NCBI GenBank assembly: GCA_958009085.1
Contig: OY253670.1
Coordinates: forward strand, 310,001 to 374,000
Direction of reading: 5' to 3'
DNA: 64,000 bases
Source of the DNA: Protoeuglena noctilucae
Taxonomy: Eukaryota
Shown here in pieces: positions 3,413-61,826 of the stretch; the first letter of the stretch is position 1; each line of letters opens with the position of its first letter. Below the pieces are notes generated by a model. The model did no database searches, was not told the DNA's origin, and worked only from the letters and a program-made list of their open reading frames with translations. Position numbers and translations under genes: made by a program.

Positions 3413-6400
3413 ATGGGTGCGACATGCCATGGACCGCGTCCATGCTCAACCGCGCTCGTTGGGTGCCCTCAGGTCTTCCCGCGCGGAGAGGCGAGTCCGG
3501 CCCGCGCCATGCCCGGCGCCGCCGCGATGGCCGCGCACGCGGAGCGTAAGAGCGAGGAGGACGACGGTGGTCATCAAGGGGAGCGCCGGGAGGGCGGGTC
3601 GCGCCTCGACCAGCTTCAAGAAGCCGTGGACGCGGTGAGGCACGCCCGGGCGCGTCAGTGCCGCCGTCCCCCGCAGGTCCCCATGGCTGCGGAATGTGCG
3701 TGTGGTTGGCTCGAACAATGGCCAGAGGGCCCAGAGGCTCTTCCGGCAAGGCTCTCGTGATGGGGCACAGTAGGGGGGCCAGCGGTGCCATACCCGCCCG
3801 CGTCGCTGCCGCCGACGCCTCGTCGCGCGGTCCGTTCGACGCAGGAGACGAAGCGGCAACAGGAGATGGACTTCGGGTACGAGAGGGGCATCTGGGACCA
3901 TTACAGCATGGGCGACAAGGTCGGGGAGGGTGGCTTCGGGAAGGTCTTCGTGGTCACGCACAAGGCCACCGGGCAGGAGTTTGCGTGCAAGGCCATCCCG
4001 AAGGCGAGGGCGGGTGGATGGCAGCGGGGACGGCCGGAGTCGCCGCGATGCGCGCACTGGGGCTGCGGTATCGCTTGCTCTTCCGCAGCGCAAGTGACCG
4101 CCGCGCGAACCCCTGCGACCCTCTGCGCCCCGCAGGTGTGGTCGGGCGACAACCACGAGGACCCCGCGCGCCAGGCCAAGCACCGCCGCGCGCTGCGCAA
4201 CGAGGTTGAGGCGTTGTCGCGCCTCCGGGGCACGCTCAACGTGGTGCACCTTGAGGGGGCCTTTGAGGACGACGAGCACGTCTTCCTGGTCACGCAGCTG
4301 TGCCGCGGCGGCGAGCTGGCCCACCGCATCGGCGAGCGCGCCTACACGGAGCGCACCGTGGCATCCATCATGCGCGCCGTGCTCCGGACGCTTGCCCAGT
4401 GCCACGCCCACAAGTGAGTGAGGGCCGCGGCAGCAGGCAGAGGAGCGCCGTGGTTTGTGAGGGTCTGTTACATACATAAGCTGACAGACAAGGGTAGTTC
4501 TGATTCCCAAGTGTTTGCTGGTTGCTGGTCCCCCTTCCTCGTCACGCGAACCTCGTTGTTCCCTCACCCACCGCCCCTCCCCCCCCGCAGCATCGTGCAC
4601 CGCGACGTCAAGCCGGGCAACTTCATGCTTTTGGATGCGTCTGACGAGTCGCGCATCAAGGCCATCGACTTTGGCCTCGCGGTGCCTTTTGAGGACGCCG
4701 ACCTGCCGTTGACCGAGCTGGGGTTCGAGGGCACGCCTTGGTACATGGCCCCCGAGGTCCTCCGATCCGAGGTCGTCCCCGCCTCCGATCTCTTCGCGGC
4801 GGGCGTAATGGCCTACCAGCTTTTATCCGGGCGCTTCCCGTTCGACGATCGCCAGAACCCCTTCCGTCCCGCACTCTCGGCGGTCTGGCGATCGGTCCTC
4901 ACCGACGAACCCGACTTCTCGAAGCGGCACTGGCAGGAGGTGTCCGAGGAGGCCAAGGACCTCGTCGGACGGCTGCTGCACAAGGACCCAAAGCAGCGGC
5001 CAACAGCAGCGGAGGCCCTTGCGCACCCGTGGCTGCAAGGGGAGGTGTCGGAGCGCCACGCGGCCGGCCCCCGCCCCATCGAACGCACCATCGTGCAGCG
5101 CATCCAGCGCTTCGCCCAGGGCAGCGCCTTCAAGCGGTCCGTGCTGGAGCTGGTGGCCGAGGAGCTCCTCACCATGGCGCCCACCACGCGCGAGGAGGCG
5201 GCCGTGCAGGCGGCGCTCAAGAGCCCCGCCATGTCGCGCAAGGCGAGTGCAGATGTGGATGGAGCAGGGGGGGTTGCTTACGGGGTGCTTACGGGGTGGT
5301 ATTGGGAAGGGTGTTGTGAAGCGCCTTGCGGTTGCTCATTGATAGGGCTCGTGTCTGAACACCTGTCGCGCCTCTCGCTCCCTCCGCAGGCGTCCCAGGC
5401 GCACCTCTTCTCGCCCGGCCCCTCCATGCACAGCGGGGGGTCGCAGGGGGCGCTGGCGCGGGACGACGGGGGCGGGAGCATCCACGGCGCCGCGCCCAGC
5501 CCCGGCGGCAGCGCACACGGCCGGCACCTCACCCTCGAGGCCTACATCGACCTCCTCAGCATGCAGGGTGAGTCGGCGGTCGTCTATGGCGATGCATGAT
5601 ATTACCGATAAGGACTTATGCCGCACTATGCCTTGCGCAACCCAGCTACCTCGACCGCCCCTCGTCCCTCGTCACTTGCCATTCTCCCCTACACATCTCC
5701 TAACCAACCACCCCCCTCCCCGCAGCTGGAGGGTCCATCCAGGACCTTCGAAACAACGCCGTGCCCGGCCCCGGGCGCAAGTCGGCCGAGAAGACCGCCC
5801 ACCGCAGCCCCGGCCAGTCCCGGCACGGCCACCAGGGCTCCAACCTGCTCGCGGCCTACTTCGCGCGCTTGGCGGCGCAGCAGGGGGTCGGCGGGCCGGG
5901 CGGCTCCCACCACGGCAGCGGGGCGGGGCAGCCGGGGTCCAGCCGGGACAGCACGGTGCACTCGGTGGTGGGCCGGGGCCACAGCAAGCCCTACCACGGG
6001 GCCGCGGGCGCGGCGACGCCCGACCCGACGACGCACGCGGGCGCGGACGCGGTGGCGATTCCCGGGGCGGAGGGCAGCCCGGCGGGGCGGCCGGCGGGTC
6101 GCGAAGGGTCGGGCCGCGGCGGGTTGCAGCTGGCGCCCGGGCTGTCGCCGAGCCTCGCCAAGGCCCTCGACAGCGTCGACTTCGTCAAGCGCGCCGTCAT
6201 GCGCGTCGGGTCCCTGGGCGACCGCCTCAAGTGAGCGGCTACGGGCGATGAGTGATGGATGGGAGTGGATGATGATGGTCGGGTGGAGTTTCATAGCTAC
6301 CGTCTCGTCTGTTTAGGATGGCTCTGCGGGTAGACAGCGCATAGTAGTAGCTACCACTGCATCGCTCATAGCAACCTGGGCATGTCTTGCCGCGTCACTG

Positions 6401-10500: not shown

Positions 10501-11653
10501 TGTGAGCGACACCAGAAAGTGAAGGTGCCGAGGATGTCTGCTAGCTGCCCGCTAGCCTAGCAGGTCGCATTCAATGGAAATCTCTGCTCATCCAGTCGCT
10601 GCCTCATCTCACCGTTGGAAGGACACCGTGCGTGCGGAGGGGTGGGCGACGAGGGCGTCGCGGAGGGGCCCCTGCCGGCCGCGGCGCAGGCCCTCGACGG
10701 ACGAAGCGGGGATCACCAGGCTCGTCACTTGCGCGCGCAGGGCCGCGGCCAGGTGCGCAAAGTCCCTGCAGGTCGCAGCAGCGCGGCACGCCTCCCGCAC
10801 CGTCAGCCGGGCAAAGACCTCCAGCTTCACGTCGCCGGGGAGCGCGTGCCACGTGAGCTCCACCGCGGGCGCGCTCGATGCCGCCGGCGGCTCCCCCGGG
10901 CCCCCGTCCGGCGCTCCGAACACGAGGTCGTCGTCGGCGGTGGCGTGCGGGTCACGGGCCTGCTCCGCCATCGATATCAGCGCCTCCGTCGCGCGCTCCA
11001 CGTTGCCGGAACACGCGTCGAGGACTTGCTCGATCACGTCGGGGTCCACCGCCTGCGGGGAGCGCCGCGCGGAGCGAGGCTGGGCGAGGCGGGGCAAAAA
11101 AAGCAAGCCAGCTGCCGACCGCGACGGCTGGGAGGGTTGATAGGATTGCACGATGTCTGGAACGCTAGAACGGCGTGCTACTAGCGCGTCAGCGTGGTTG
11201 CGCGCGGCCAGCTGGCGCTCGCCTGGCCAAACATTTCGAGCAGGGAGAACAGGTCGGCACGGCCGCGGCGGTAGCCTCGATGCCCCGGGACGTTGTACCC
11301 AGGCGGTGGAACCGCGCGGTCCTGTCGACTGGGAGGAGACTTCCCCGCGGATAGACGCGAGCCCCTGCGCGGCAGCAATGGCAAGCCAAGGCACGCTGAG
11401 GTGGAGCACGCCGAGCAGGACGCGCGGCCAGGCACGGGTGCGGCGGGCTGCTCGAAGTTTTCCGGTCACGTTCAGCGGTTGACGTGCCCCGGGCATCACT
11501 GTATATTATTCGAAAAATGGAGGACAAGGCCGGCACCAACCTGCTCGGGGCGTCGTCCTGAAGTGCGCGGGCGTCCCGGGCATCGTTCTCGAACAGAGAA
11601 AGGAAAGCCATTTGTTGGCGGCTCGGCTCGCCGCGGTTGCGCCGTCGGCCCAT
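7583..11653 (-). CDS. CUE-domain + F-box + leucine-rich-repeat protein
   Basis: CUE-like LLEMFGQ|AVDPDVIEQVLDACSGNVERATEALISM (joined across GC-AG intron 11222-11053), F-box WHALPGDVKLEVFARLTVREACRAAATCRDF, and cysteine-containing LRRs (LDLKGCSALTD, LNLSGCPRL, IDLSGCIAL). Start exon uncertain. Confidence 0.8.
8831..8958. repeat. ~50-bp degenerate tandem repeat (about 2.5 copies) inside an intron of the F-box gene
   Basis: Units ttgagatggatagattgtgcatgtcgtggtggggtgggtgcaaagggg / ttgagatggatcgattgcatgtcgtggtgggttggggtgcaaagggg / gatcgattgtgcatgtggcgg. Confidence 0.8.
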
Positions 11654-12047
11654 CGCTGTGCACAGAAAAGCGACGAGGAGGGGCGAGCCCAGGCCCAACG
11701 TCGACCAATTATCGATGCCACGTCAGCTCAGCCAGCCACACGTCTTGCGCTCTGATATGGGGAACCACTGCCAATCATTCAAGCGTTCACTCCTCCATTG
11801 AGCATCTGACAGACGACGTCTCGCAAGCCACGGCATGTGTCACATGCAATCCGAACACCAGAATCTCCTATCTGCAATCGAGTCTACTCTCACTAAGCTG
11901 GTCATAATCTATCTGGACTGCCCTCAGTCTGTGTGCACGCCTGCCTGCACACCGTAGTGCACCTGCACCTGTTACGGCTGTGCTCACGGTAACGCGGTAA
12001 CGGGTCGAACCTCACGACCTGCGTCGAGCCTGCGTTTCGCACGGCAG

Positions 12048-14025
12048 CTACGCCGTGGCCCCCCGGCCCTGCTCGGCACCCGGGCGCACCGGGGAGACCT
12101 CGATGCCCACGGCGGCGGCCTTGTCGGCATCGACGGCCTTCTCTGTGTCTGCATCCTGGAAGACGTCATTGCCCTCCAGCACCTCCTGCAGCGTCACCCC
12201 GGGCCTCTCGCACGCGCCGAAGAGCGTCAGCGCCGTCCACGTGCCGTAAAGCAGGACTGCGGCGGACGCAGACGGCAGGCCTCGCTCCCCATGATGCGCC
12301 AGCAGCAGCAGGGAGCAGCGGGACTGCCGTGAGCTGCCATTTCGCCTGCCATGCCGGCCACGCGCGGAACATGCGCGGCCATACGCGGACACGCAAAGTG
12401 CATCCCACTCTATTACATCACTCTTGCATCATTCTACTGCATCGCGCACTGGTGGCTGGACCGCCCCAGCTCGGTCTCACCGAAGCAGAGGAAGTGGCAC
12501 CACATGATCCAGGCTGCGTTCCAGCGCTGGTTGAGGTATCGGTCGCACGTGGGGTCCTCGCAGTACGTGCTGTGGCTGGGGCCCATGCGCACCTGCACCC
12601 GGCTGGGGTCAGGGCACACCGACATGCGGTACTGGTCCCAGGTCACGCCGGCAGGCGAGATGATGCCCCGGCCGGAGTAGAGCTCGAGGCCGCCGTCGTC
12701 GCACCGCCCGTCGGCGATGCCCTGGGCGGTGCACGCGATGGGCGGGCAGGGCGGGCGGTGGAACATGGGCGCCACCCACTGGTCCGACGAGAGCCACAGG
12801 TCCCCCGTGGCCCACACGATCTGCAAAAGGAGGACGAGGAGAAGCCCGGTGCGTCAACGGCCGTCTGGGCACCCGCTGCTGCATAAGCGGACTGCGACGC
12901 CAGCTCTCGGCGCCCTCACGTTGCCAGTGATCCACACGAGGTTCTCGCCGGCGTGGAGGAGGTCCAGCGACCCGAGCCCGTTGCCCGTCGCTCCCCTCAA
13001 GATGTCCCCGCTGCTGGCAGAGAGTGGGTGGTGTGCCATTAGTCACCGCAGGCGCGTGCGACGAAGGGGCCAGCGGGTGCACGCCACTTTCATGTAGATG
13101 AGGGCCCATAGAGCCGTGAGGATGGCGGTGGGGATCCACAGCCCGATGCTCAGGTAGTTCCAGGCCAAGTCCTTCAGCAGCCAGAAGAGAGAGTGGCACG
13201 CCTCGAACTCCTGCGTGCGTGACTTGGTGTGTGGGCTGCAGGAATGCCGACAAGTAAGGCGCCGGGCAGGGTGCCAAGCATATTTGCAGTGCCACTCGCC
13301 CTCTGGGTCCGGAAGTAGAAGGACAGGTGCGGCGGCTTCACGTCCTTGGCCTTCTCACGGGGCAGGTCGGCGTCGAACAGGCGCAGGGGGCGCAGGATCA
13401 AATACCAGAGGCCCTGGGGGCGAAGGCGAGTGCAGGCAAGGGGTTGCAGGCGATGGCATGGGATGCTGTTTTGCTCGAGGCCCCCGACTCTGAGCATACT
13501 TGGATCGCAATCGCCGCGAACATCACGTTCCGTGCATTGATCGTGTACCGGTTGTAGAGGTCCCTGCGGGGGAGCAGGCGCGTTGCACTGACAGGACTCA
13601 GACAGCGGGCTCCGACCCAGGGCGGGTTTTGAGGCGCGCAAGTCCTGTAACCTGCAACCTGGGCATGACGATCTCACCAGTACTGCCCATGGTTGCGCCA
13701 GTCGGCTGCGAGGGAGGGGAGGTGTCGGGGAGGTGTCGCTCGCTTCGTGCTGTCGCATGGTACGGGCCGCCCGCGCACGCAGCACACGCAGCCGCGGCCG
13801 CTGCTCACAGTTCTCCGCCACGGACCACACGAGGTTGGCCATGATCCACACCGCGAGGGCTAAGAACGAGAGTCCCTCGCGGCGTAGCCCCTGGCCAAAC
13901 GCGTAGCGGGTCGCCAAGTGCAGCGAGATCAGGCAGGCGACGATGCCGAAGATGGCGCACGGGATGATGGCCCCCTGCGTCCAGGCGAGGTCCTTGGCGC
14001 CCCACGTGTAGAGCACGAGGTGCTC
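12048..14025 (-). CDS. Uncharacterised multi-pass membrane protein with two internal repeats (first exon not resolved, probably within 14030-14300)
   Basis: Spliced exons give EHLVLYTWGAKDLAW...LAVWIMANLVWSVAE and EACHSLFWLLKDLAW...NLVWITGN|IVWATGD, a Cys-rich loop and an acidic tail. Stop TAG at 12050-12048. Confidence 0.7.
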
Positions 14026-14479: not shown

Positions 14480-17400
14480 ATGCTGCGCTCCGCCTGCGGA
14501 CCTGCCTCCGCTTCCGCAGGGGCCGTGCCCGCCTCTGCTCGATGGCCGAGGCGGGCGCGCGCGGTCCTCACGCGCGCGAAGAAGGACAGGAAGGGGGACT
14601 CTTCCAAGTCGCAGAAGTCAGCGGCGCCTCCCCCCGAGCCCAAGCTCTCCTCCGCGAAGCCCCGTGGTGAGGACGAGGACGGCGCTGGCTCCAAGCGCGG
14701 CGTGGCCCCGGCAAACCGTCGACGCTGCGCCGCGCACGCAATCTTTGTAATTGTCACAGCCATCCCGCGGCGCGCCACCCCGTCCAGCCTGCTCGCTCGC
14801 GTCCGAGGGAGCCGCGACGCAGTTGTGGCTCGAGGAAGGCGGTCCCTGCAGCGCTGCTCGCGCCTCGCGTGGGACCGAGGGTCGCGCCTGCGTTCCTGTT
14901 CTGTTCCCGCCGCGGCGCTGTCGGACTCGCGCCCGCCCCCGGGCCGACGAGGCGCGGCAGGTCGTTCGCAGCCGCGAGAGTCGGATCGCATCCTCGCCCG
15001 CAGAGGATGACTTCACGCTCAACCCGCTCACCCTGGGGAGGCGGTCGCGCGAGGCGTTCGACGCGGCATGGAACCAGGCGAGCTGCGCAATGCGGGCGCG
15101 GGTACTGAGGGATGAACGCAGACGTGTCGCCCCGCCCTGCAACCGCGCTCATCGACCGTGGGGCCCTCTCGCTGCAGTTCGCGTCTCTCGGAGCCTTGAA
15201 TCGCAAGGGGAGCACGCCGATGAGCCTGGAGGACATCGACATGCTGGATCGGCAGGGTGGCCCGAACGTTGCGGGGGACGGCCGCGCGCAGCGGACGCTC
15301 GTGCTGGTCATCGGGGCCACGGGTCGCGTGGGTCGTATCCTCGTGCGCAAGCTGCTGCTTCGCGGCTACCGCGTTCGGGCCCTGGTGCGGAAGCGGCCGG
15401 ACGGAAGCGAGCGCGAGCTGCTCCCCGAGAAGGTCGAGGGTGAGGCGCGAGGCGGACGGGTGCCGCGCGGGCGAAACCGATCCTTTCCATCGATCCCCCC
15501 ATCGACGCACGCCCCTCGCCTCGCCGCAGTGGTGTACGGGGACGTGTCGGACTACGCTTCGGTCCGCAGCGCCGTGCGCGCCGCGGACAAGGTCGTCTAC
15601 TGCGCGGGTGCGCGCACGATGCTCACGCCCGACCTCAGCAACGTCTACTTGGCGGGAGTTGAGACGACGCTGCGGTGAGGGGCCGGGATGGCCCATCGCA
15701 GCGCCTCCCTTGTCATCCCTCGCGTGCGGTCGCGAACAACGGCGCTTCTTGTACATAAACCCCTCGCAGGGCTTTGTTCGACGAGAGCAACGACCGCAAG
15801 CAGGGCGCGCTTTCCGTGAAGGAGGCCCAGGAGGAGACTGTAGAGGGCCTGCAGCCCAAGGTGGATGCCAAGGTTCTCCTGGCCAACTTCAAGCGACAGG
15901 GCCCGGCGGAGAGCGCCTGGAAGCTGCAGCACGTGGGACTGGTGAGTGAGCGCGCGGAGAGGGGCGGGTGGCCGACTCGGGGGCAAGCAAGTGCGGGAGG
16001 GTGTTATCGTGACGGCCATACCCTTTCTCGCAGGCCCCGACGGCGTCGCAGCTGCAGCGCACGATGTACCGCGCCCAGGACATCGCGTCAATCGATTTCG
16101 TCGAGGATGCGCGGGCCGCGAAGGCCGCCGAGCCGGCCCTGGTGGCGGCGGGGGCTGCAGGAGAGGACGCGCCCGGCGGGGCGGCGGTGAAGCGGTACGG
16201 GCGCAAGGATGGCGACGCGGCGGACGGCGACGCGGTCCCAGCGTTCCTGCGCTTCAAGGGCGTCGTCTACAACCGAGGGGCCATGGCGGAGGCGGGGGCA
16301 CAGGTGTCTGGCGGTCCCGGCACGCTGGCGGGAACGGAGGCAATCAACCTGCACGTGGGTGGCGACGGCCAGCAGTACTTATGCGTCGTGCGCGCGGGCG
16401 GGCACTCGTACGTTCAGCGCTTCCTGGCGCGCGAGGGCTTCGGCAACGTTCACCTTCCGTGGTGTTTCTTCCGACCCGAGGTTCGGGACGCCGAGGCGCC
16501 GCCTCTCGACCCCAACGACATCGACTACGTCGGGATCCGCTACGAGCCCCGCATCGGCATGGCCGGGGCCGTCGAGGTGAGCGAGCGGGGAAGAGGGACG
16601 GTGGTAGATGGCGTGTCGGTGCATGCGATGAGCCCGGGCGTGATGGGGTGGCTCGGACTGGCCCACAGCAAGGGACGGAGAACCGGCAGCGATTCAACCT
16701 GTACGTCTCCCGCATCAAGGTGTCCCCCACGCGGCCGGAGACGAACTTTGTCCTCGTGTCGTGCGCGGGGAGCGGGAAGGTGGGTGCGGTTGGGGTGGCT
16801 TGGACTCGCGTGCGCGCACGTGCCGCAGCTGGGAGGTGTCTCGACTCGCGTGTGTGCACAAGCAGCATGCATGGCATGCTTCGCTTTGTTCTGTGCACTG
16901 GCAACAACGGAGGGCTGCGGCGTGGGGCTGTTGTGGGGCTGGGTCGACTCCAGCGTCACTACTGCTCCATGCAGGTCGACATGTCTTCGGAGGACCTCCA
17001 GAAGGAGAAGCGGTGCCGGGCAGAGGGAGAGGCACGCGCCCGCACCTCGGGGGTGGGCTACACCATCATCAGGCGAGCTGGAAGGGTGGCATATCTCGAC
17101 TGTCCCGTGCAGCGCTGCACTCCCCTGTATCATATTTACAGTAAGGCTAGTGTCTGTGCTTGATATATGAACGGGGCAGTATGAGGAGCTTTATGTCGTA
17201 TCTCTCGTAGCTACCACCACCATGGCCCCGCTCGACACCTCTGCCCTTCCCCGATCCCCGCTCAGGCCCGGCCGCATCACGGAGGAGGCAGGGGGGTACA
17301 AGGCCCTGGTGTTTGACCAGGGGGACCGCGTGGACCAGGCGGTGTCTGCGGCAGATGTGGCCGACATCTGCCTCAGGTCCCTGCACGACCCGGAGGCGCG

Positions 17401-18280: not shown

Positions 18281-20543
18281 TCAGACGTACTTGAGTGGCC
18301 CCTCGAGTAGCCCTTCCCGGAACTGCACGACGTAGGGGTTGTCGGTGCGGTCGAATTCGGGGGTGGGCCCCTCCCACACGACGCGGCCCTCATGCAGGAA
18401 GACCAGGCGGTCCGTGGCACGCCTGGAGGGGGTGGCGAGGGAGGCTGGGAATTGGAAAGAGAGCATAGCGAGAGCCGGGCATTGCGTGAGCCAGGAACAG
18501 CGACAGACAAGCATCACAAGAGCCAGGCAGTGCGAGAGCAGCAGTCGGGTCGACTGTGCCGAACTTGTCATAGCATAGCTACACAGGCAACGCTGTATAG
18601 TATCGCGCAGTGCAGCTGCCAGCCAGCCTGGCTGGCAGAGGGGCGTGGGGTGCCCTCATCCACTGCCGCCACGCCGCCGCTCGCCTGATGGTGGAGTGCT
18701 GGTGGGTGACGACGATGTAGGACGCGATGGTGCTCTCGCGGTTGTTGTGCAGGTCCCTCATCAAGTCCTCCACCACCGTCGACGCCACCGGGTCCAGACC
18801 TGCCGTCGGCTCGTCGTACATGATGACCTGGGGACATCAAAGGGAGCGACGGGATAGCTGCGGTGATGTACGTGGTGTGTTGGGGTGCTTAAGCGAGTGA
18901 CCGATGGCTATCTAATTGACTAAATGACTATCCAGCCTGAGTGACATCGTGACATTCCACACGGTGTGTACAAGAATGGCAGAGAGGCCACCCACATCTG
19001 CCCCCGCGCACCCCGAACCTGTTCTACCCCCGACAAGCAGAGACGCCCCACATCATCATGTCCCACCTGGTCTACCCCCGACGACACGTCCTCGTCTGGG
19101 ATCACCGCCCTCGCCAGCGCCACGCGCTTCTTCATTCCACCCGACAGCGACGCGGGGGACTGGTGCTCCACGTCCCGCAGGCCCACCTTGGCCAGGGAGT
19201 CCTTGACGCTGCGGGCGAGAGCACCGGATGCGATCACTCTAACATGACGCTGCGGGTGAGGCGCACAAAGCGGGCCTAGTCCATCACGACATTGGTCGTC
19301 GCAGTGAGAGCACAGAGCGCTTCTAGCGTATATCGAGCATCATCTACATGAAAGGGTGGCGACAGAAAGCAAGTGTGGTGGCAAGTGTGGTACTACACTA
19401 AGTATCGCATCTCGTGGCATCTGTGCCGCACCGTCGCACGATCTCCTCCTCGGGGAGCTTCGAGTGTTCGTACAACAAGAAGCCCACGTTCTCGCCGACG
19501 GTCAGGGAGTCGAAGAGCGCCGCGCTCTGGAACACCAGGCCGATCTTCAACGAGTGCTGGGAGTCCGCATCGTCCGCCTGTGAAGAGGGGAAGGGCAACG
19601 GCCTAGCCATGTTGCATGGCAGCGCGAAATCAGTAAGAGGAACAGCTGCCCAATCGCACTGTAACGCGAGGTAGTGCACGTGATCGGCGACAGCCAGGGC
19701 GCGACTCGCCAGGAGGCCCTGCCGCGGGCGGCCCTTGATGACGACATCGCCACTGTCGGGGGCCAGGAGGCCCGCGGCGAGCTTCAGAGTCGTCGACTTG
19801 CCCGTTCCCGAGCCTCCGATGATACCCACGGCTTCTCCTCGACGTATCTGCGCGGCGCGGCGGGCGGGGACCGCTCCCGCAAGGCCCGGCGAGGCCAACC
19901 GTGTTTCGCAAACACGCGCCCGGGCCCCATCGCGACTCCTCGCCTTGAAGCTGGCTCCCCGCAGAATCTTCTTACTACCAAAGGCCTTGTGAACGTTGCG
20001 AAGCTCGATAAGCACGTCCTCGGCGACCGGCGCGCCCGCAGCAGGCGCGTGTTGGTCCTGCAAGGTCGACGCCGCCCGAGCCGCGACGGACGAACCCGTC
20101 GTGGACGGAACCTGCACGCGACGATCCTGGCACTTCGTTCGTCCCTACGACGCAGGGAGCGCGCGATGCTGGGCACCGTGCGCTGCGCTACCGCCTCTCG
20201 CGTCCGCTGCCATGATACCACCCCCCCGCCACCGCGGATGCGGCAGCTGACGTGGTGGGAGTGCTAGTAGGCATCGTTGCTGCCCCAGTAAAAGCCGCAG
20301 CCGACGCACCGGGGCCAGCCGGTCGCCGTCCGCGCCTGGCCGTGGGCGCGCGCCGATCCCCCTCGTCACCTGGTCGTCCCCCGCGAGAACACGGCAAACG
20401 TGGCGCGGATGCTTGTCTCTTTCGACGAAAGGAAGCCCCGGCAAGCACAACGACGGCGTGGGCGCTCGAGGGCGGGAGGTGGAGGGGCACTGGAGCGCTG
20501 TACGCCCTGTCGCCGATAGTGCGCTGCCCGCGGCGCCAGCCAT
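18281..20543 (-). CDS. TGD3: Plastid lipid-transport ABC ATPase TRIGALACTOSYLDIACYLGLYCEROL 3 (MlaF-like); 7 exons
   Basis: IELRNVHKAFGSKKILRGASFK|IRRGEAVGIIGGSGTGKST, IGLVFQSAALFDSLTVGENV, LSGGMKKRVALARA, MYDEPTAGLDPVASTVVEDL, and C-terminal NPYVVQFREGLLEGPLKYV. Confidence 0.92.
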
Positions 20544-25250: not shown

Positions 25251-26458
25251 TCAGACGCACGCCGCTGCGGGCGACGGGGGAGAATTGGTGGGCACTGGTA
25301 GCAGCTGCGTTGGTGGGTTAGTAGAGCTGGGGGTACCGCAGCTCTCCCCACCCAGCAACGACAGACGGGCGAGTGGGTGCACAGCACACAAGGCAGCAAC
25401 GCTGTCGAACCCCACACCAAAACATCAACTCAACCCCAACCGCCACCTCCCCACCCCCACCCCCTCGCCTTCTTCCCCGCCCGTCTCGCCACCCCCCCCA
25501 CGCTCTTGCACTGCCCCCAGGGGTGCCCCTCCTTCCTCCCCGCGATCGCCTCAGGACCCTCGCCAGTGTTCAAGTGCACCAGGTAATCGTGGACGTCACT
25601 GAACCCCGCGCGGCGCGCGCTGGGCAGCACCTGGCCCGTGGCAGGCAGCCCGGCCTTCTTGCGACAGAGCGAGCAGTTGCAGCACAGGTTGCACCCCGGG
25701 CCGCACCCGCCCCGGCACGGCGGACACACCCACGCGCCCGACGCAATGGCCAATTCGACGTCCTCCCCGTGACGATTGCGGAGGCACGACCCGCAGAAGG
25801 ACGTGGGCATGCGGGGACCACGCGACCCCGACCCACACGTCGGCCGCGTGCACTGCACCTGGGCCTCCAGCGTCTTCTGTCTGCGAGAGCAAGGGGAATG
25901 CGTGACGCTCAGATCAGGCAGGGACGGACGGGGTCGATCTGGTGGGGTGCGCGTCAGTGAGGGTGCGATAGGGTACGCCGACTACGCGGACGCTAAGCTC
26001 CGGTGTTGGATCGATAGGTAGTGTCGTCCGCTGAGCTGACAACACTTCTTGCGCTCGGTCTCTCGCCTGCACCAGTGGCAAGTGACTCCGCTGGCGCTGT
26101 CGTAGACCTTGCCACCCTGGATGCGCACGCCCTTGCCCGAGTCCCGCGGTCCATGCGGGGACGTGACCGGCTTCTTGACGCCGCCGGCCTGGACGCCGAT
26201 GCGAGCGCCGCGCTTGTCGCTGTCCTGCAAAGCGGACTTCGGAGGATTGCAGGCGGCCGGGCAGGGCGCGGCGAGGTGTGATGGCTGCATGGGACGTCAG
26301 CGATGTGAAAAGCCCGCCTTGCTCACCTCTCCATCCGTTGGTGCATCCCCCAAAGCCGCGAATGCCTTCTCCACGTTGTAGTCGACCTTCTTCACCGAAC
26401 TCCTCGGCGTCCTCGGCCCTGGCGAAGACGCTGGGGGCGTTCCCTCCACCGCGAGCAT
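25251..26458 (-). CDS. zf-4CXXC_R1 zinc-finger protein (CDCA7-like)
   Basis: GGKVYDSASGVTCHWCR|QKT...FCGSCLRNRHGEDV....WVCPPCRG..CCNCSLCRKKAGLPATG...GFSDVHDYL. Last exon ambiguous (stop at 25251 or 25085). Confidence 0.85.
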
Positions 26459-41600: not shown

Positions 41601-44600
41601 TACCTCACTGCCCCCCACTCCCCCACTGCCTTATCACTTTGCTACCACTCCCCTCACTCCTCCCCCACTCCCCCACTCCCTCCCCATCACCCCCAACCAC
41701 TTACACCACTCCCACCACTCCTTTCCCCCTCTTCCCTTCTCCCAGCGATGCCCGCGTGGAGCCCAACTGCGCGTACGTGGTCAACCTCATGGCCTCTCCT
41801 TTGGTGAACGAAGAGGCGCCCGAGGGACCCGAGCGCACCTACGCACTGCAAGTGTCAGACACGGGTGAGTGAATGGGGGAGTAGTGATTGGGGTAGATGA
41901 GAGAGGATGGCGACGGCATAGCTGCGCTCTGCAAGTGTCAGACACGGGTGAGGGAGATGAGGAGAGTGACTAGGGGATATGGGTGCGATGAGTGTGGGTA
42001 GATGAGTGACTGGGAGATGGGTGGGGGTTGCAGTGTTGCACCTATGTCCTGCAAGTGTCAGACACGGGTGAGTGGGAGATGAGTGACTGGGGGAGATGAG
42101 CGATGGAGGGAGATGAGTGTGGGTGGCAATGGCTGGATGGGGCGATAGGGGTCGTGACCATGGCTGCAAATACTACCCTCCCTCACCCACACCCTCATAG
42201 CAACCCACACCACATGCCAACCCACCCCCCTATTCAAACAAACCCCCATTACCCCCCACCCCCCACCCCCAGTGTTGACGAAGGATGGCGCGGCTGCCGA
42301 GTTGCTGACCAGCTTCAGCAAGCGCGACTGGAAGGACCTCACGTATTTGATGGACCGAGAAGAGATGGCCAGGGACCAGGCGAGGATATGGGGGATGAAT
42401 GGGGATACCGGTTACTATGTATAATGGGGGATAGAATTATGCTGTATCAGATGCACATGTTACTGTGTAGTGCTTGTTATGTAGTCAAAGATCGGGAGGA
42501 GATGGCCAGGGACCAGGCGAGGAGAAGGGTTGAAAGGGAAATTTGGTTGTTGCTATCATAATGTATTGGGAAATGATATTGGAAGTGATGTTTGCGATCG
42601 AACGCGCAGGGTGCGTTCGTACTAACATGTTCTGACTCTATCGACTGTTCTCTCTGCTTTGCCCAATATATTTGTCCAACAAGTATATTAACGAATAATC
42701 CCTATCGCATTCTTATACCATGCTAACAACACCCCCCTTCGCAGGGCGTGGACTCCGGGGACGAGGAGGGGGAGCGTGCGTTTGCGATTGGTCGGGACGC
42801 CCTTCGTGCGGCTCGCAAGGACGACGTGCAGCAGCGGCAGAGGGAGCTGGCGGAGGAAAAGACGAAAGACACGATTGACAGGCTCAGAGCTGCGGGGGAG
42901 AAGATGGGGAGGGGAAAGGCGGGTGAGGGGTTAGGGGGGTGGATGTGGGGTGGTGAGGGAGTGGTGGGGTGACAATGAGAGACTGAAACGTCGTTATCTT
43001 CCGGGTTGCCTCTCATAAATACGATTCTGTTATCACCCACTCCCAATTCATACTCTCTCAGGCAAGGCCGTGCGCACCACCAAGAGCATCGTCAGTTACC
43101 GCGATATGGCCGAGATGCCCAAGAGCCAGGCCATGGTCATCCAGGCGAGTTGAATGGGAAGGGAGGGTTAGTTGTGTCTAGCATAGCTTTCAGTTGCATT
43201 CCGTCTTCATAATTAGCGTCCTACTTGCCTCTTTTATCATTATAATCACCCACTATCTATTCACCAATCCGTATACTATCTTCAACCATTCCCCCATCTT
43301 ACCACCCAACAGGTCGACCACCGCCGCGAGTCCCTCCTCCTCCCCATCTACGGCGTGCTGGTCCCCTTCCACATCGCGACGGTCAAGTCGATCACGTATA
43401 GCCAGGAGGGCGAGCTGCATTCAATCCGCGTCATCTTCAACACGCCCGGGTCATTCGCGGCCGAGGGGTTCCAGCCCGCTGCCGACTTCCCCCACGCCAT
43501 CTACGTCAAGGAGCTCAGCTACAGGTGAGGGATGTTTTGTATAACTGTTATAATTATAGTGTATATGTCACTATATGTGGGCACCATAATGCGCCATCTA
43601 CGTCAAGGAGCTGAGCTGCAGGCGAGTGGGGGGATGGTTTATTATTGATATCGGTACTGATAACAATAATAACATCTGCCTCTTTGGAACCCAGTCACCT
43701 CGATATCATCCAAACTTCCAACTCCCCGTCGTCATTTCCAAACACCCCCAGGAGCAAGGACGCGGGCCACGCCTCGCGCGTGGTGCAGGAGGCCAAGGCA
43801 TTGCAGAAGAACGTGAGGAGCCGGGACAAGGAGCGGGCGGAACGTGCTACGCTGGTGTCGCAGGAGAAGATGGTCACGATGCGCGTGCCGAGGGCCAAGC
43901 TCAGCGACGTGTGGGCGCGGCCGGCGCTGGGGGGCGGGAGGGGGAGGAAGGCCCCGGGGGTGCTCGAGGTGCACCAGGTGACTGTGGTGGTGTTATATGT
44001 CATATTTATTATTGATATGTATGAGGAAGTATGAACGATGCGTGTGGGTGTCTCGGTACTGTATGGAAGGCGCCGGGGGTGCTTTAGCGAGGTGCACCAG
44101 GCGAGTCTGTTATATTATATTATATTATATTATATTATATCACCACCCCTCATTCCTTGTCAATCGCAGAACGGCTTCCGTTACTCGAGCCCGCGCACGC
44201 AAGAGGTGGTGGACGTGATGTTCAGCAACGTGAAGCACGCCTTCTTCCAGCCGGCGCAGAACGAGCACATCGCGCTGGTGCACTTGCATCTCTTCGACCC
44301 CATCATGGTCAACAAGAAGAAGACCAACGACGTGCAGTTCTTCACTGAGGTGGGTATGGTTATCATGGTATCAATAGTTACGGGTAGTTACTAGTATTGG
44401 TTAGATATGGTGGTGGCAGTCAACAAGAAGAAGACCAACGACGTGCGCAGTAGTCAACACCGACACCAAGCCGTGTCCTAATCATTTGCTTACTTCGAAC
44501 ATAACTCTTTCACTCCCCCCTTCCCCTATTCCCAGGTGGTGGACGCGGTGCAGACGCTGGACGGCGCTCGTAGTAACGCGTACGACCCCGATGAGATTGA

Positions 44601-46593
44601 GGACGAGCAGAGGGAGAGGGAGAGGAAGAACAGGATCAACAAGGACTTCGAGAGGTTCTGCAAACAGGTGAGGGGAATACCGAAGACGCGCTAAAACGTT
44701 TTGTACTGCACCCATGCCTCCTCCCATCCCCGCAGCTCACCAGAACGAGCTACGATAATTTAATGGTAATAATAATTACAATAATCATCTACTATTCATC
44801 GTCCACCCCCCTTCCCACCCATCGCAGCTCCAGGACGTGTGGTCGCGCGAGTTCCCCAAGCTGGACCTGGAGTGGCAGATGCCCTATCGCAAGCTGATGT
44901 TCGAGGGGGTGCCATTCAAAGAAAACGTCAACTGCCTGCCCACCATGAAGTGCCTGGTGGAGCTCACATCCATGCCATTCCTGGTGGTGGACCTCGACGA
45001 GGCGGAGATCGTGTCCCTCGAGGCGAGTTTGGTTTGTTGTTGGTATAATTGATTTATCAGTATCTGTTACTACTGCTATTATTACTATCACTGCCAGTGC
45101 GACCTCGACGAGGCCGAGATTGTGTCCCTAGGCGAGTATCGTGGTTATTTGTTATTGTTATTACTGTTATTATCATGCTATTACTATTACTATTACTATT
45201 ACTATTACTATTACTATTACTATTACTATTACTTTTACTATTACTGTTACTATCCTTATTACTTTTACTCTTACTACTCTCAACCACCATTCCCCCCCGC
45301 AGCGCGTGGGCATTTCATCGCTTCGCAACTTTGACATTGTGGTGGTATTTAAGGACTTCACCCGACCCGTGCAGCACATCCACTCGGTGCCCGCCAAGAA
45401 GCTCGAGGTCGTCAAGGCGAGTTCTTTTTGTAATTAAATAACATAGACACATCGAATGCGAACGTGATGATAATAGATATTAAAAAATGATTATCATAAG
45501 TACAATGATGTGATAATTGTGATATTGTAATAATTATTATAAGTATAATAACCCACTCATCATCTCCCAACCCACCCCCAGCAATGGCTGACCTCCACGG
45601 GCATCCCGTTCTTCGAGAACAAGCACAACATGCGATGGGACATGATATTGAAGGAGATCACCAAGGACCCGGCCGCGTTCGAGGAAGTGGGGGGGTGGGC
45701 GGGGTTCCTGGACGCGCAGGGCGGGAGCGATGATGAGGTGAGAACAAGATGGGTGGGGTGGGGTGATGGGTGGGGTGATGATAGAGATGGGGTGTGGTGA
45801 GGGTAGCAGTGGGGGTGGCAGTGGAGTTCCGGGACGTGCAGGGCGGGAGCGAGGATGAGGTGAGGGGTGGGGTGGGTGGTGATGAGTGGGGTTGATGAGG
45901 GGTGTGTTCGCGTGGAAATGGCGAACGGGTAGCACGGACTGTGTCGCCAGTACTAGTATGCATGTATGATATTAATTAGTCAACATATCATCGTATGATC
46001 TACGCTCCCAGGACGACGGCGAGCCCTCGGATGACGACTTCCAGCCGTCAGGGAGCAGCGAGGAGGAGGAGAGCGACGACGAGTCGAGTGACTACATCAC
46101 CAGCGAGGGGGAGGTGAGTGATGAGAGTGGGATGGAATGAAGGGGGTTGTAGGTGTTGGATATGCCCCACCCTCGCTGCCATTCGCACACTCATCCCCAC
46201 TGCCACCCCCACCCCCACTGCCACCCCCACCGCCACCCCCACTGCCACCCCCACTGTCACCCTCAACATCACCCCCACTGCCACCCTCCCTCACCCCCAC
46301 TCACCCCACCCACCCTCACCCTCACCCCACTCCAGGACTCTGGCTCTGAGGAGCTTGGGAGTGACGAGGAGAGTGGCAAGGACTGGGATGAGCTTGAGAA
46401 GGAGGCAGCGGATGCGGACGCTGAGGCGGGCAGCGATGACGATGAGGAGGAGAGGCGGTTGAAGAGGAAGAGGGAAGCGATGTCTAAGAAAGGGGGTGGT
46501 GGGAGTGGGAAGGGGAGTGGTGGGGGTAAGAGTGGGGGTAAGGGGGGACCAGCGAAGGGGAGTGGGGGGCCTGTAAAGAAAGCTAAGCGATGA
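38621..46593 (+). CDS. SPT16: FACT complex subunit SPT16; 20 exons
   Basis: FLRRLKTLYDRWK, SYKKSASLHMWLFGYE|IPDT, YPPVVQSGGTFDL, GTRYQSYCANCARTF, LLLPIYGVLVPFHIATVK, GVLEVHQ|NGFRY, VKHAFFQP, YDPDEIEDEQRER and acidic tail GKDWDELEKEA. All 19 introns join in frame. Confidence 0.96.
45150..45282. repeat. AT-rich (TAT/TAC)n microsatellite in an SPT16 intron
   Basis: ttactattactattactatt... tract, far below local GC content. Confidence 0.9.
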
Positions 46594-47231: not shown

Positions 47232-50200
47232 TCACCCGTCGTCGTGTAATGCCACAATGAGCGACGGTGCCAGCATCCGGTACACCTCCCCCGACAAAGC
47301 CAGCGCCCACCCCCACGCCACCCCCGCACTGGGCCCCCTCGCCTGCACCACCTCCACGAAGCGTTTGAGGAAATCCAAGCCAGACTGACTCAGTAAACAG
47401 ACGGACGAGTCGACGTCGATGGCAGGCGATGCACTGGCATCGGCATTGGTAACGCTCGCACCACCACCCATGCCACCACTGCCACCCGCACTGCCACCTG
47501 CACCCGCACCCGCACCTGCACCCGCACCCGCAACCGCACCCGCACCCGCACCCGCACCCATACCACCACCCGTCTCTCCCCATCCCCCGAGCACCGTCGT
47601 CACAGCAAACAGCCCCGGCGCCGCCCGGCACAGCCACTGCAGCACGTCGCGCTGCGCTTGTTTCTTACGCAAACGCCTCTCCTTTCGCTCTGCGCTGTTT
47701 TCCATCCCATCAATGTCCTCGTCTGTCCCAAACAGGGAGGGGAATAGGGGCAGGCGGGAGGGGTCCACGAGGTCCAATTGGTCGGCCCAGTAGCGAGCTG
47801 CGGGGGGTGGGAGTTGGGGTGGGGATGTGAGTTTGGGGTGAGGGGGTGAGAATGGGGTGAGAGTTGGGGTAAGAGTGAGCGGGTAAAGGTGGGTTGCAGA
47901 GAGAGAGAGTGGGTGAGCTTGCGCAAGAGTGGGTAAGTGTGCGCATGCCATCTACCATCTACCATTTCCCACAATGCGCATCAGCAACATAGCAATATCG
48001 CGTTTCGTGTTGTGCTGTGCTGCGCCACATCTCTCGCCTTCCAGGTCGACGGTGCTGGTGGGGAGGGAGGAGAGGGGCAGGGAGAGGAACTGGGAGCGGG
48101 GGTCACTGGCGTTGGCGAGCTGCGGGAAGGGAGAAGGGTGTTGTTAGTATTGTTATTTGCTTGCTTGCATCGCGCTTGCATGGAAAGCGTCACAGACAGC
48201 ATCGCAGGCCATGTCTCCCACCACTCAACACTCACACCACCATTCCACTCACATACCATCCCAATCAACCGCCACCCACCCCATCTCCAACTCTCACCCG
48301 GCACAGCGTAATCGGGTACGCCATGTCACCCACCACTCAACATCCACACCCACATTACATCCAAATCAACCCCACCCACCACTTCACAACTCTCATCCAC
48401 CACTACATCAATCCCTCACCCGGCACAGCGTGATGGGGTACGCCATATCACCCCCCACATTCGCCTCGTGCACCGCCCTCATCGCCTCCGCCTCCTCCCC
48501 ATCGCCCATCCCCGCCCCGCACACCCACAGCCGCGTGTGCCGGAGCAGTTCCGGGTCCGACAGACGCACGCTCAGCTCCTGGCGCACGAAGCCACCCCCC
48601 TTAGGCCCCCACGCGCCCCACACCGCCGTCGACCCGACCGTCCCCACCGCCACCACCCGCACCCATGGCGCGCCCTCGGCCAGCATCGCGGCGAGTTCCA
48701 GCACCGCCTCCGCAGCCACGGGACGCACCAGGCCCCCGTTCAGATACACCACGATCACCCGGCGGTCGCTGGGCCCAGCCGCCGCCAGGGCGTTTACCAG
48801 CAGCGACGCCGCCAGACTGGCAAAGTCCTCGCCCCTCGCATCCGCCGCCGCCTCCATCGCAGCGAGCATCGCCGCTTTAGAAAGGCCCGGGGGTGGGTCG
48901 ACGGCCAGCTGACACGCGAGCGTCCATAGCAGCGACGCGTTGCGGGCCCACAGCGGACTGCGCAGGCCCCGGCACTCGCCGCTTGCCTGGTCGGGGAGAG
49001 CCGCGGCGAGGAGCAAACCGCACCGGCGGAGCTCTTGCGCCACCTCTGCCGCCATGCACACGGCCGGGAGCTCTGACAGACCGTCTGCTGTGCGGCACAG
49101 GCGGGACAGGCAGGGGGTGTCGGGGGCAGGGCCGGGGTGGACGCGAACGAACAGCAGCGTCTGCGGGCGCGGGACCTCGCCGACGGGCGCGGGCTCCCGG
49201 CCGCCGTCGCCGGGGGCAGCGGCACGGCGGCCGCGCCTGCGCTTGGCGCCACCCCGCAGCCGCAACGGGGGTGGGCCGTCGACCGGGGGGCCGCCGGGTT
49301 GCGGGGAGGGGTGCGGGGAGGGCGCGGGGACGCCCTGCGACGCGGCAGCGGACGGGAGGTACGGGGACAGGTGGCCCGCGGTTGCGTGGGTGGGTGGGTG
49401 CGGCCCCGCGACCCCCGCACCCCCCGCCATCCTCTGCGCCATCGCCAGCCACTCCGCCTCCGCAGCACTCCTCCCCGCGTTCGCCACCCCCGCTCCCTGC
49501 CCCTGCCTCGCCGCCACCTCTGCCCCCACCGCCTCCGCCACCCACCGCTCGCACTCTTGGGCCGCACGCATCCCCGCCTCCATTTCGAGCATCCGGGCGC
49601 GCGCCAGCTGCGCCTCTAAGGAGAGAGGACCGGACGTACCGGTATGCCCGATCATGCCCCCGATATGACCCATCATCGCGGTCAGCTCCCGCAGTGCCCA
49701 TGGGTCCCGCACCAGCGCCGCCAAAATCTCAGGGTGGGGCAAACCCTGGCCGGGAGCCGGGGCAATACCCTGGGCGGGGTCGGGGTCGGCGGGGAAGGCG
49801 CCCGCAGGCGCGTAGGGTGGCGCGCGGGAGTGGGCGAGCGCGAGGTGGGGCGGGTCGCTTGCGGGTGGCTGCCCGGCCCCTTCGGTCGCACCCCAGCCTT
49901 CGCCGGCGTCCCAGCGCCGTCCCACATCGGTCGGGGCGTCCGCTGCGCCCCACAGCGCCGCGCGCGCCGCCTCTGCCGCCGCCGCCGCCCTCTCCGCACC
50001 GACCATCGCGTCGGCAGTCACCGCCCCGAGCCCCCCCGTCCCCATCTGCGCCTCGTGCATCTGTTGCATCTGTTGCAGTTGCATCTGCTGCCACTGCATC
50101 TGTTGCAACTGCATCTGTTGCATCTGCATTTGCTGTATCTGCTGCAGCTGCGCCTGCGCTTGCATCTGGGCTGCCACGTCCTCTCCGTAACCCCACCCCG

Positions 50201-59459: not shown

Positions 59460-61826
59460 CTACTCCTTCTGTTGGATCTGCCCCAGCAGCTTGAGCGTGG
59501 CTTCGTAGACCATAAACGTGATGGCGGAGTTGGGAGCCGTTTTGGCCAAATAGGGCACCATGCCTCGGTAAAACCCCCGCAGACCCTCCCGCTGGAATGT
59601 GGTGGCGGCCGCCTGCGCTAGGCCCACGTACTGAACTGCACGGCCATCCTGACGCTGCTGCAGCCTGCGGGGGTGAGGGTGGGAGTGGGGGTGAGGGTGA
59701 GGGTAGCAGTGAGGGTGGGGGTGCAGGTGACGGTAGCACTGGGGGCGAGGGTGGGAGTAGGGGTGGCAGTGAGGGTGGCAGTGGGGGCGAGGGTGGGAGT
59801 GGGGGTGAGGGTGAGGGTAGCAGTGAGGGTGGGGGTGCAGGTGACGGTAGCACTGGGGGCGAGGGTAGCTGTGGGGGTGGCAGTGAGGGTGAGGGTGAGG
59901 ACGAGGGTGAGGGTGAGGGTGAGGGTGGCAGTGAGGGTGAGGGTCGAGGTAGCAGTGAGGGTGAGGGCGAGAGTGGGGGTAGCATGGAGCGTACAGGTAG
60001 CAGTGAGGGTGAGGGTGAGAGGTCACGTACAGTTCTATCACCACACCAACAGAGCCTCACCTGGACTTGATGACCTGGGTGGGATACGTGATCATCCCCG
60101 CGATGATCTTGCTGGCCGCTCCACAACTCGACGCCTCCCCCGCCGTGAGACCCCGCGTCTGCGATGTCCCGGAGGGGTCGCCCTTTCGCGCCCACGCCAG
60201 CACCAGGTCCTTCAGCTCCTCGTACACTGCGGCGGTGCGATGGGAGAAGCAATGATGTATGAATATTTAATGGGAGTATGATGTTACATTGAGGAGCATG
60301 CCAGGGTGTTTCAGGTCCCTTGTACACTGCGACGGTGCGATGAGAGAAATAGCAAAAAAAGTGGGAAGCATGTAGAGAGAATATGATATGGATTTCACTT
60401 ATTGATTACTTACGCCGTGTGAACTGAAATTGCGCTTGAGTGGGCAGCCATGGCACAGCATCAATCCTCTCTCACCCATCAGCTGAATGGCCCCGTTGGA
60501 GAGCAGCAGCAGGGCCGGGCCCAGACCCCGGTAGAACCCTCGGATGCCCTGCGGGTGAGACAGATGGGAATCCATGGCGTCGCAGCCACATCACAGGGTC
60601 TCAGCCACGCACAGTATCCCGGGCTGTGACCTCAACAGGCGAGCTCACGACCTGCCCGCGATGCACCGGCCACCCAAGCCCACGCCTCGCAGCTGCCCAC
60701 GCCCCCATGCAAGCATCCACGCCTGCCTAGCGCCCTCGCCTCGGTGCGTGCGATGGTGCGTATGGCATCCCACGCCCCCACGTAGACGTGCCCCCCCGAC
60801 GCCTGGTGAGCCGCCCGCAGCGCCCCGTGCGGCTGCAGCTGCATCCGCGTCTTTACCACCCACAGAGGATTGAGCGTCAGCTGCACCACCAGCCCCGCCT
60901 GCACCCACGGCCGCGAGTTGTGCATGTCGCAACCATGGCAGTGGGCGGTGTGTGATGCAAGGCACAAGAGAGACGGGATGTTAGGTGTTCCAGGATGGGA
61001 TAGGTACCAAGGATGCAAGGGTGCAAGACAGGCACGCGAGTGTCAGTCCACCATCACCACAACACACGGCGCCACAGCCCCTACCCAGCCCACACATAGC
61101 TGCCACTGCCCACCTCCAATGCCGCCAGCATGTTTGAGATGGGCGACAGCTTCCGATTCGCATCCCCCTCCCCCCGATGCCTGCCCTTGGCCCAACTGTA
61201 GCTCTGCAGGTAAATGCCCCACGCCAGACCCGTGCTGATCTGCAGAGGCGATAGATGCGGAGAGAACGTGAACACCTTATCCATCCAAAGAGCAAGCGAG
61301 CCTCTCGGCCCTGGTCTTGCTGCAACGTGCCATACCAGCACCGGAGTCGCCATATGAGCACCACATACAACGACGCCGGACGTCGATCCTAGGTAGCAGC
61401 TCGGCCCCGCGTCTCACCAAAGCAGGCGCGAGGCCTGAGTAAAGCCCGCGGACCCCTTCTAAGCGGACGGTGCGCATGGCAGCGTCGCGAAAGCCCTGGT
61501 ACATGGGGAGGGGCCCTCCCCCGCCATCCTGCACCTGAAGCCGCGTCTTTATGACATCCAACGGATGCAGCAAAAGCACCTGCGGAAGAGGCACGCGGAG
61601 CGGTGGTCAGTCGGCGCGGCTCGCGCGCCATCGCGAGAGACAGGGCCGGGCAAGCACAGGGCGCGTGGTTGCGAAGGACCTAGCGCAAAGCCATCGCGGA
61701 CGTCGCGCGTGCCTGTGCGAGTCCGGCGGTGAATCCGGCGATGGCGTGCTGCAAATCCCACGATTCGAATGAGATGAAGCGTGCGGGGAAGCGGTCTTGT
61801 GTTACGCCGGCCTGGCTCGACGTCAT
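59460..61826 (-). CDS. Mitochondrial-carrier-family protein, folate/FAD carrier type (FOLT1/SLC25A32-like); 7 exons
   Basis: Three carrier signatures HPLDVIKTRLQ, NPLWVVKTRMQ and YPTQVIKS|RLQ, plus EGVRGLYSG, GIRGFYRG and EGLRGFYRG; HAIAGFTAG and GAIQLMVYEELK fit the folate-carrier clade. Confidence 0.88.
59670..60020. repeat. (GAGGGT/GGCAGT)n hexamer-based intronic repeat with a ~78-bp block duplicated 114 bp apart
   Basis: gagggtagcagtgagggtgggggtgcaggtgacggtagcactgggggcgagggt at ~59699 and ~59813. Confidence 0.85.

Follow-up and report, generated by a model that had tools for sequence, protein, structure and literature searches.

Abundant GC-AG introns with doubly strong donor flanks in the genome of Protoeuglena noctilucae

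Roughly one intron in six in the genome of Protoeuglena noctilucae probably begins with GC instead of GT (a true share of 15-20%), and this excess of GC donors is almost certainly real and genome-wide. It was noticed in a stretch of 64,000 nucleotides (nt), hereafter the window (contig OY253670.1, positions 310,001 to 374,000; G000:C3:310001-374000, where G000 is the studied assembly of 26.3 Mb in 27 contigs), which has a GC content of 64.6%. A first-pass annotation of the window had named 21 GC donors with the consensus AG/GCGAG, the slash marking the exon-intron boundary. Observed directly are the GC excess, its restriction to AG/GCRAG (R, A or G), canonical pairing sites in the spliceosomal small nuclear RNAs (snRNAs), and one switch between GT and GC in a related genome. 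These features are best explained, with moderate confidence, by a U2-type spliceosome that would tolerate C at the second intron position (+2) at near-nil cost given perfect flanks, by way of protein changes.

All 21 named donors read GC at +1/+2; 20 of them read GCGAG, 19 follow an exonic AG, and 18 are exactly AG/GCGAG. The RNA evidence consists of contigs from four metatranscriptome runs (at most three samples, from one study) mapped on window positions 3100-23000. Of 41 joints obtained, the results rest on the 15 best supported, 11 GT-AG and 4 GC-AG, and since all lie in only two genes, this proportion is not a genome estimate. The four GC-AG joints fall at the named donors 4004, 5243, 15078, and 17073, and GC-AG is the sole G..AG placement at each, so that introns with GC..AG ends are removed from mRNA. 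Six further named donors in the same region fall outside the 15 joints, and the RNA is silent on them either way. Each of the 15 joints appears in one form, with the proviso that contigs drop rare forms. The sole listed difference between RNA contigs and genome is one G>A, which bears, at the level of contigs, on C-to-U editing of donors. The C is not an assembly error, as an environmental contig is identical at donor 15078 and an independent genome (L091, below) has GC donors. Run X2 reaches a depth of 7,246 in the window bin 17708-18371, between convergent genes, and stays below 25 elsewhere; a short repeat that also occurs in other organisms probably accounts for the peak.

Introns were also predicted with a purpose-built gene finder, a two-strand probabilistic model in which any base is allowed at +2. 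Three genes served as its seed, and it then trained itself on the window together with 600 kb drawn from 20 contigs; a posterior of at least 0.9 was required for counts. The finder recovers 18 of the 21 named donors at a posterior of at least 0.98; the other three, 15078 (RNA-proven), 38690, and 61712, are lost to its truncation of the 5' ends of their genes. In a Pfam scan of 30 exons, domain positions abut exactly across 45023 (positions 43 and 44) and 60739 (58 and 59) and are compatible at 4004, 19943, 26066, 38690, 43145, and 61712, with no informative match beyond these junctions. An Rfam scan of the window matched no family.

The claim that six of 19 SPT16 introns are GC-AG holds, and the exons join into an open frame of 1,051 codons. 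For a second gene, called TGD3 and credited with three GC donors in six introns, the three donors stand, over five firm introns; the gene, which has a Pfam ABC_tran match, is a putative TGD3. The weakest named donors are 19709 (a stop-free intron in frame, without Pfam support) and 13299, 28155, and 48037, which depend on finder and frame only. The finder's tally for the window is 22 GC, 77 GT, and 1 GG introns (22% GC), and among the 22 those at 27807, 31664, and 32120 look doubtful. The introns concerned, in window coordinates and with the finder's posterior where available, are as follows.

4004..4135, plus strand: GC-AG intron, protein kinase gene; RNA joint; finder 1.0; Pfam Pkinase reaches the last exon residue.
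5243..5389, plus strand: GC-AG intron, kinase gene; RNA joint.
11053..11222, minus strand: GC-AG intron, first in the gene 7583-11234; finder 1.0; no in-frame GT within 60 nt; retention leads to a stop.
13211..13299, minus strand: probable GC-AG intron (GG/GCGAG), gene without Pfam match; finder 1.0; frame only.
15078..15177, plus strand: GC-AG intron, NAD(P)-binding protein gene; RNA joint; an unspliced run X2 contig covers the donor with 0 other letters.
17073..17265, plus strand: GC-AG intron, NAD(P)-binding protein gene; RNA joint in four of four runs.
18423..18684, minus strand: GC-AG intron, ABC ATPase gene; finder 1.0; retention leads to a stop.
19578..19709, minus strand: possible GC-AG intron (TG/GCGAG), ABC ATPase gene; finder 0.98; in frame and stop-free, so retention is possible.
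19848..19943, minus strand: GC-AG intron, ABC ATPase gene; finder 1.0; ABC_tran position 8 opens the next exon.
21489..21719, plus strand: GC-AG intron, Deg-type protease gene; finder 1.0; the next exon has Trypsin_2.
25265..25468, minus strand: additional GC-AG intron, absent from the earlier list; finder 1.0; retention leads to a stop.
25881..26066, minus strand: GC-AG intron, zf-4CXXC_R1 gene; finder 1.0; Pfam position 14 opens the next exon.
28155..28324, plus strand: probable GC-AG intron, low-complexity coding region; finder 1.0; weak, as all three frames are open.
38621..46593, plus strand: SPT16 gene, 20 exons, 6 of 19 introns GC-AG; open frame; Pfam.
38690..38954, plus strand: GC-AG intron 1 of SPT16; open full frame; N-lobe positions 1-18 (E value 0.19), then position 25 at residue 6; missed by the finder.
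39843..40000, plus strand: GC-AG intron 4 of SPT16; open full frame; finder.
42380..42744, plus strand: GC-AG intron 9 of SPT16; open full frame; finder; internal copy of exon end plus GC donor at 42517.
43145..43312, plus strand: GC-AG intron 11 of SPT16; open frame; finder; Pfam SPT16 position 3 opens the next exon.
45023..45302, plus strand: GC-AG intron 16 of SPT16; Pfam positions abut exactly.
45417..45581, plus strand: GC-AG intron 17 of SPT16; open full frame; finder.
47798..48037, minus strand: probable GC-AG intron, large gene of unassigned family; finder 1.0; retention leads to a stop.
60549..60739, minus strand: GC-AG intron, mitochondrial carrier gene; Pfam positions abut exactly.
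61580..61712, minus strand: GC-AG intron (AG/GCACG), mitochondrial carrier gene; no in-frame GT within 60 nt; retention leads to a stop; Mito_carr in the next exon; missed by the finder.

Beyond the window the same excess is found. The pooled set comprises 1,240 predicted introns in 801 kb (the window and 737 kb outside it), a sample of 3% of the genome. Outside the window, 200 of 1,140 introns have GC donors (17.5%, confidence interval 15.4-19.9), somewhat below the share in the window. In the 600 kb used for training, which yielded 1,011 Viterbi introns, the calls above the posterior cut-off are GT 795, GC 162, GG 2, and GA 3 (16.8% GC), and GC donors make up 101 of the 599 internal introns whose flanking exons both reach at least 60 nt. 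A held-out 120 kb gave 34 of 150. The control donors GA and GG together account for 8 of the 1,240 introns. A run with a flat prior and a single shared donor matrix counted T 639, C 154, G 12, and A 6 at +2; the last two figures imply about nine false calls per base there, and noise may account for many of the GC calls in weak contexts. Compared with a GT-only model, permitting GC improves the fit by 1,604 log units, with a best-fitting GC share of about 0.17, against 46 for GA and 71 for GG; therefore, the GC excess is not due to chance. GC donors occur in 19 of 20 sampled stretches and are randomly spread over 255 genes (p 0.23) and over intron positions. A regional effect was rejected: one 30-kb stretch of contig C13 had 0 of 24 GC donors, yet a second stretch of that contig had 8 of 35. 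The high frequency claimed from the window is thus borne out by finder counts across the genome and by RNA joints in the window. So is the warning that standard gene finders would misannotate this genome, as 115 of the 177 predicted genes with at least three introns carry a GC donor.

The GC donors are distinguished by their flanks, which are closer to the U1 complement than those of GT donors. AG/GCRAG accounts for 190 of 222 GC donors, while the corresponding sequence is found in 224 of 1,010 GT donors. In GC donors -2A, -1G, +4A, and +5G occur at 94%, 98%, 96%, and 99%, against 59%, 92%, 71%, and 87% in GT donors. Otherwise the two kinds of intron are alike in acceptor, composition, and a weak CTGAC-like signal about 30 nt upstream, with median lengths of 120 nt (GC) and 126 nt (GT); no longer enhancer or stronger branch signals were seen at GC introns. 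All introns are polarised, with 39% G after the donor and 44% C before the acceptor, and their branch-point motif is weak.

The frequency of C at +2 depends sharply on both flanks. With M for A or C, K for G or T, and a dot for +2, the class MAG/G.GAG holds 135 C and 117 T, against an intron-interior background of 229 and 260 (54% versus 47% C; odds ratio (OR) 1.3, p 0.09), and MAG/G.AAG holds 29 C and 4 T against 161 and 48 (88% versus 77% C; OR 2.2, p 0.18). When one flank is weaker, C becomes scarce: KAG/G.GAG has 22 C and 97 T (OR 0.26), notAG/G.GAG has 11 and 353 (OR 0.035), and MAG followed by anything other than RAG has 12 and 257, so that C stays below 5% in the latter two large classes. 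The same pattern appears with the shared donor matrix and flat +2 prior, and in the held-out 120 kb. If mutation and selection balance, the C:T ratio relative to background in one context would measure the cost of C, and these equilibrium ratios suggest that +2 is near-neutral where both flanks are perfect. CpG decay need not be invoked for the difference between +3G and +3A: each stretch has a CpG observed/expected of 0.90-1.00, and the background ratios show the same difference. Among GT donors, exon-side AG and intron-side RAG form a see-saw (OR 0.21). Such AG and RAG donor classes have been tied to pairing with U5 loop 1 and the U6 ACAGA box, respectively (available text of PMC11732430).

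The GC introns would accordingly be ordinary major-spliceosome introns. In the proposed mechanism, the exon-side (A/C)AG would pair with U1 and U5 loop 1, and the intron-side RAG (+3 to +5) with U1 and then the U6 ACAGA box. GT donors would manage with one flank of the two, and GC donors would require both. Within the doubly strong class, +2 would drift between T and C near the mutational balance of a GC-rich genome, giving rise to the roughly 17% GC donors. Neutral fixation of GC in strong contexts was already proposed in 2008 (available text of PMC2490688). The relaxed +2 recognition and GC-biased substitution put forward in the first-pass annotation agree, respectively, with C lying near background in the perfect-flank class and with the higher frequency of C, within the matched class, in the third of introns richest in GC (65/94 versus 99/191). 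That reading was partly right, having missed the two-flank condition, the GCAAG donors, and the extension to a related genome.

Variant U1 or U6 snRNAs had also been suggested, and such RNAs, or a minor spliceosome, could read GC donors by base pairing. This account is highly improbable. A combined Rfam-model and DNA search found a single U1 gene with a canonical 5' end (G000:C20:523585-523744, L001), and U6 (C12:80512-80614, L002) and U5 (C20:547394-547513, L070) are likewise single genes, with a canonical ACAGAGA box and loop 1, respectively. The U1 match scored 65.9 against an Rfam cut-off of 69.5 and 41 of 427 candidates were scored, so that a very divergent second U1 could have escaped. 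The donors themselves show the flank compensation expected of a mismatch, with a median U1 duplex energy of -6.7 kcal/mol for GC donors and -8.4 for GT donors; GC donors would reach -11.1 if +2 were U. The U12-type motif GCATCC (available text of PMC1557818) is not matched by the GCGAG and GCAAG donors found here, and U6atac and U12 had no match in the assembly, a weak negative obtained without a positive control. The major-spliceosome parts found are U1, U5, U6, U1-C, PRP8, METTL16, and SNRNP27, and the presence of METTL16 and SNRNP27 fits the +4A preference. SNRNP27 (L075:1456-1695, minus strand) keeps M141, while K136/Y137 and the P149-equivalent positions are changed relative to human.

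With the pairing RNAs canonical, the tolerance of C at +2 may come from protein changes, for which PRP8 and U1-C offer candidates. The U1-C gene (contig C1) was modelled with a GC intron, and an identical protein of 203 amino acids is on record from a 2,136-base Joint Genome Institute contig that appears to be a spliced transcript, supporting a fifth GC intron outside the window. A look at U1-C had been advised, and the protein indeed carries S11, F12, and V19 where human U1-C has T11, Y12, and S19; a role for T11S/Y12F/S19V in GC tolerance is only a candidate one. According to the available text of PMC4383343, residues 11, 12, and 19 are RNA-backbone contacts, and +2C binds U1 better than +2A. 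The PRP8 gene (contig C14) has two GC introns in an open frame.

When metagenomes were scanned with a PRP8 exon, 80 loci were obtained, of which 31 are non-redundant at 97%. Two, L090 and L091, form a clade with P. noctilucae in FastTree (support 1.0), and L091 also shares two flanking genes. Five of seven predicted donors in L091 are GC, one of them inside a conserved PRP8 stretch, and an orthologous intron has the same position and identical flanks as its P. noctilucae counterpart, with C for T at +2. L091 may represent a genome with a still higher GC-donor share. PRP8 introns at the 29 non-redundant loci outside the clade comprise 55 GT, 0 GC, and 4 ambiguous donors. Of 1,109 PRP8 sites that are invariant elsewhere, 24 carry changes common to the clade. 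In human numbering the clade's changes include F1577M, I1822V, V1826T, G1867T, H1875N, and P1912N, the last of which aligns to yeast 1984, two residues from T1982. Yeast Prp8 T1982A suppresses a U2A donor mutant (as cited in the available text of PMC11092753). That a pedinophyte clade has a spliceosome blind to C versus U at +2 in well-paired donors, through substitutions in PRP8 (RNase H-like domain), U1-C, or both that resemble +2 suppressors obtained in the laboratory, is a tentative proposal, possible rather than probable.

Dinoflagellates make high use of GC donors and use GA donors as well, whereas GA and GG are at noise level here. Emiliania huxleyi, with about 55% GC donors (available text of PMC7779022), likewise defeats standard gene finders, at a share much higher than that of P. 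noctilucae. The U2-type GC-AG introns of animals and plants resemble those described here in their ends, ordinary 3' sites, and stronger flanks offsetting the +2 mismatch; they make up about 0.4-1.2% of introns (0.37-0.87% in five model species, available text of PMC1557818; a mean of 1.2% over 121 plant annotations, available text of PMC6310983), compared with about 17.5% here, where C and T are about equally frequent in the best context. Among the 14 green algae in the PMC6310983 supplement, annotation counts range over 0-8.5%, headed by Ostreococcus tauri (8.5%), Micractinium (7.0%), Micromonas pusilla (5.8%), and Chlorella sorokiniana (5.7%). P. noctilucae, of the same phylum, has at least twice the highest of these values, and no pedinophyte is among them. 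In the literature searched, mostly without subscription papers and preprint supplements, no report of a comparable level in a green alga was found, and the available text of the YPF-701 genome preprint and of a 2025 pedinophyte paper holds no relevant passage for splicing terms. GC-donor-rich genomes were thus already known, and in the data compared P. noctilucae apparently exceeds every other member of the green lineage; what is added here is a sharp two-flank rule and a near-neutral C:T ratio.

These comparisons bear on the main rival, in which an ordinary spliceosome would accept GC in a perfect context everywhere, a GC-rich genome would fill that class, and low algal values would be annotation artefacts. 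We regard this as rather unlikely. The pelagophytes Aureococcus anophagefferens and Pelagomonas calceolata, GC-rich marine microalgae of an unrelated lineage, have 14-17% predicted GC-AG introns, which the available text of bioRxiv 2024.10.30.620910 ascribes to genome GC, a low-GC relative having 0.32%; they are intron-poor, with 0.2-0.9 introns per gene versus about 5 here. The published green-algal shares may also reflect annotation, yet C. sorokiniana, at 64% GC, is annotated at a third of the level seen here, and the metagenomic outgroup L101, at 72% GC, has no GC donor among 12 and none among five in the permissive class, albeit in small numbers. That the C share climbs with local intron GC is expected under this rival too, and some normal splicing reportedly persists in about 15-18% of human GT>GC variants (PMC13129441).

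Introners have been linked to GC donors in Aureococcus. GC donors could likewise have been delivered here by an intron-generating transposon, or by exonic AG-GC duplication during lineage-specific intron gain, an account that is given a slim chance. PRP8 has at least 13 introns in P. noctilucae (L076-L077), none in L090, and one or two in L091, with one position common with an outside locus, which points to extensive intron gain in this lineage, or to loss in relatives, with no introner family detected. Many introns may therefore be lineage-specific, and junction-spanning duplications do occur. However, within the sampled 3% of the genome only 5 of 1,240 introns had a blastn relative, mostly simple repeats, and GC introns lack terminal inverted repeats, longer boundary repeats, or an excess of target-site duplications. 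The base at +2 shows no relation to the second base of the exon that follows (p 0.84-0.88), and the orthologous GT/GC pair indicates switching in place.

A separate set of internal repeats was noted. In 36 of the 1,240 introns there is an internal copy of the preceding exon end, with a median length of 28 nt, mostly followed by GT or GC (39 of 43 copies; 0 in a shuffled control). Such echo donors lie in the window introns 41865-42272, 42380-42744, 43525-43751, 43978-44169, 45023-45302, and 45738-46011, and at numerous sampled loci outside it; three echo pairs switch between GT and GC, and the C copy is always GCGAG. Copies of the next exon's start occur inside 17 introns, some by chance. By eye, window positions 1-960 and about 37320-38220 contain the same block twice, a repeat-protein fragment with the 3' end of a neighbouring gene.

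Selection could instead keep GC donors as weak, regulated splice sites; in human, nematode, and Arabidopsis, genes with alternative splicing carry an excess of GC donors (available text of PMC2490688). The random spread of the present GC donors over genes and intron positions, the C:T ratio at background, the GT/GC switch between relatives, and the single form of each RNA joint, subject to the loss of rare forms in contigs, make this the least probable of the accounts considered.

Several points weigh against near-neutral tolerance through protein changes. The near-neutral cost is read from C:T ratios and not from splicing efficiency. Its neutral yardstick is uncertain, since intergenic DNA has 74% and 88% C in the two perfect contexts and MAG/G.GAG still gives an OR of about 0.4, so that against this background a mild cost of C stays for the GAG class. 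Two small classes break the sharp rule (notAG/G.AAG, 3/12; KAG/G.AAG, 4/10). Most counts are predictions of our own gene finder; it is overconfident at gene ends, and the genes in which it recovers 12 of 15 RNA joints had seeded it. As for the candidate proteins, alanine changes at U1-C contact residues left yeast growth unchanged (available text of PMC4383343), and the clade's PRP8 changes show no concentration in the RNase H-like domain (4/125 versus 20/984 invariant sites, p 0.34). L090 shares these changes yet has 0-1 GC donors in 3-4 introns, depending on the model, and the long-branch L101 has 29 private PRP8 changes without GC donors. L151, a redundant outside locus dropped from the count, has one GC donor in 15.

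The host is probably a marine pedinophyte green alga, judging from one plastid gene. Among 120 matches listed for the plastid CcsA (contig C27), the best named are Marsupiomonas sp. NIES 1824 (61%) and Pedinophyceae YPF-701 (53%), and in a tree of 17 of these rows the protein groups with Marsupiomonas (support 98/95) on a long branch.

Against a background of about 1% GC donors in most eukaryotes and 15-55% in a few algae, this genome offers a countable rule, by which C would be free only if the U5-side and U6-side flanks are both perfect. Together with in-place GT/GC switching in a relative and named candidate residues, the rule allows a direct test, within the green lineage, of the neutral-fixation idea of 2008. 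About two thirds of the genes with at least three introns would be broken by an annotation restricted to GT donors. Judging which human GT>GC variants are tolerated may also benefit from the context rule. If true, the PRP8 and U1-C reading would constitute a natural experiment naming residues that enforce the GU rule.

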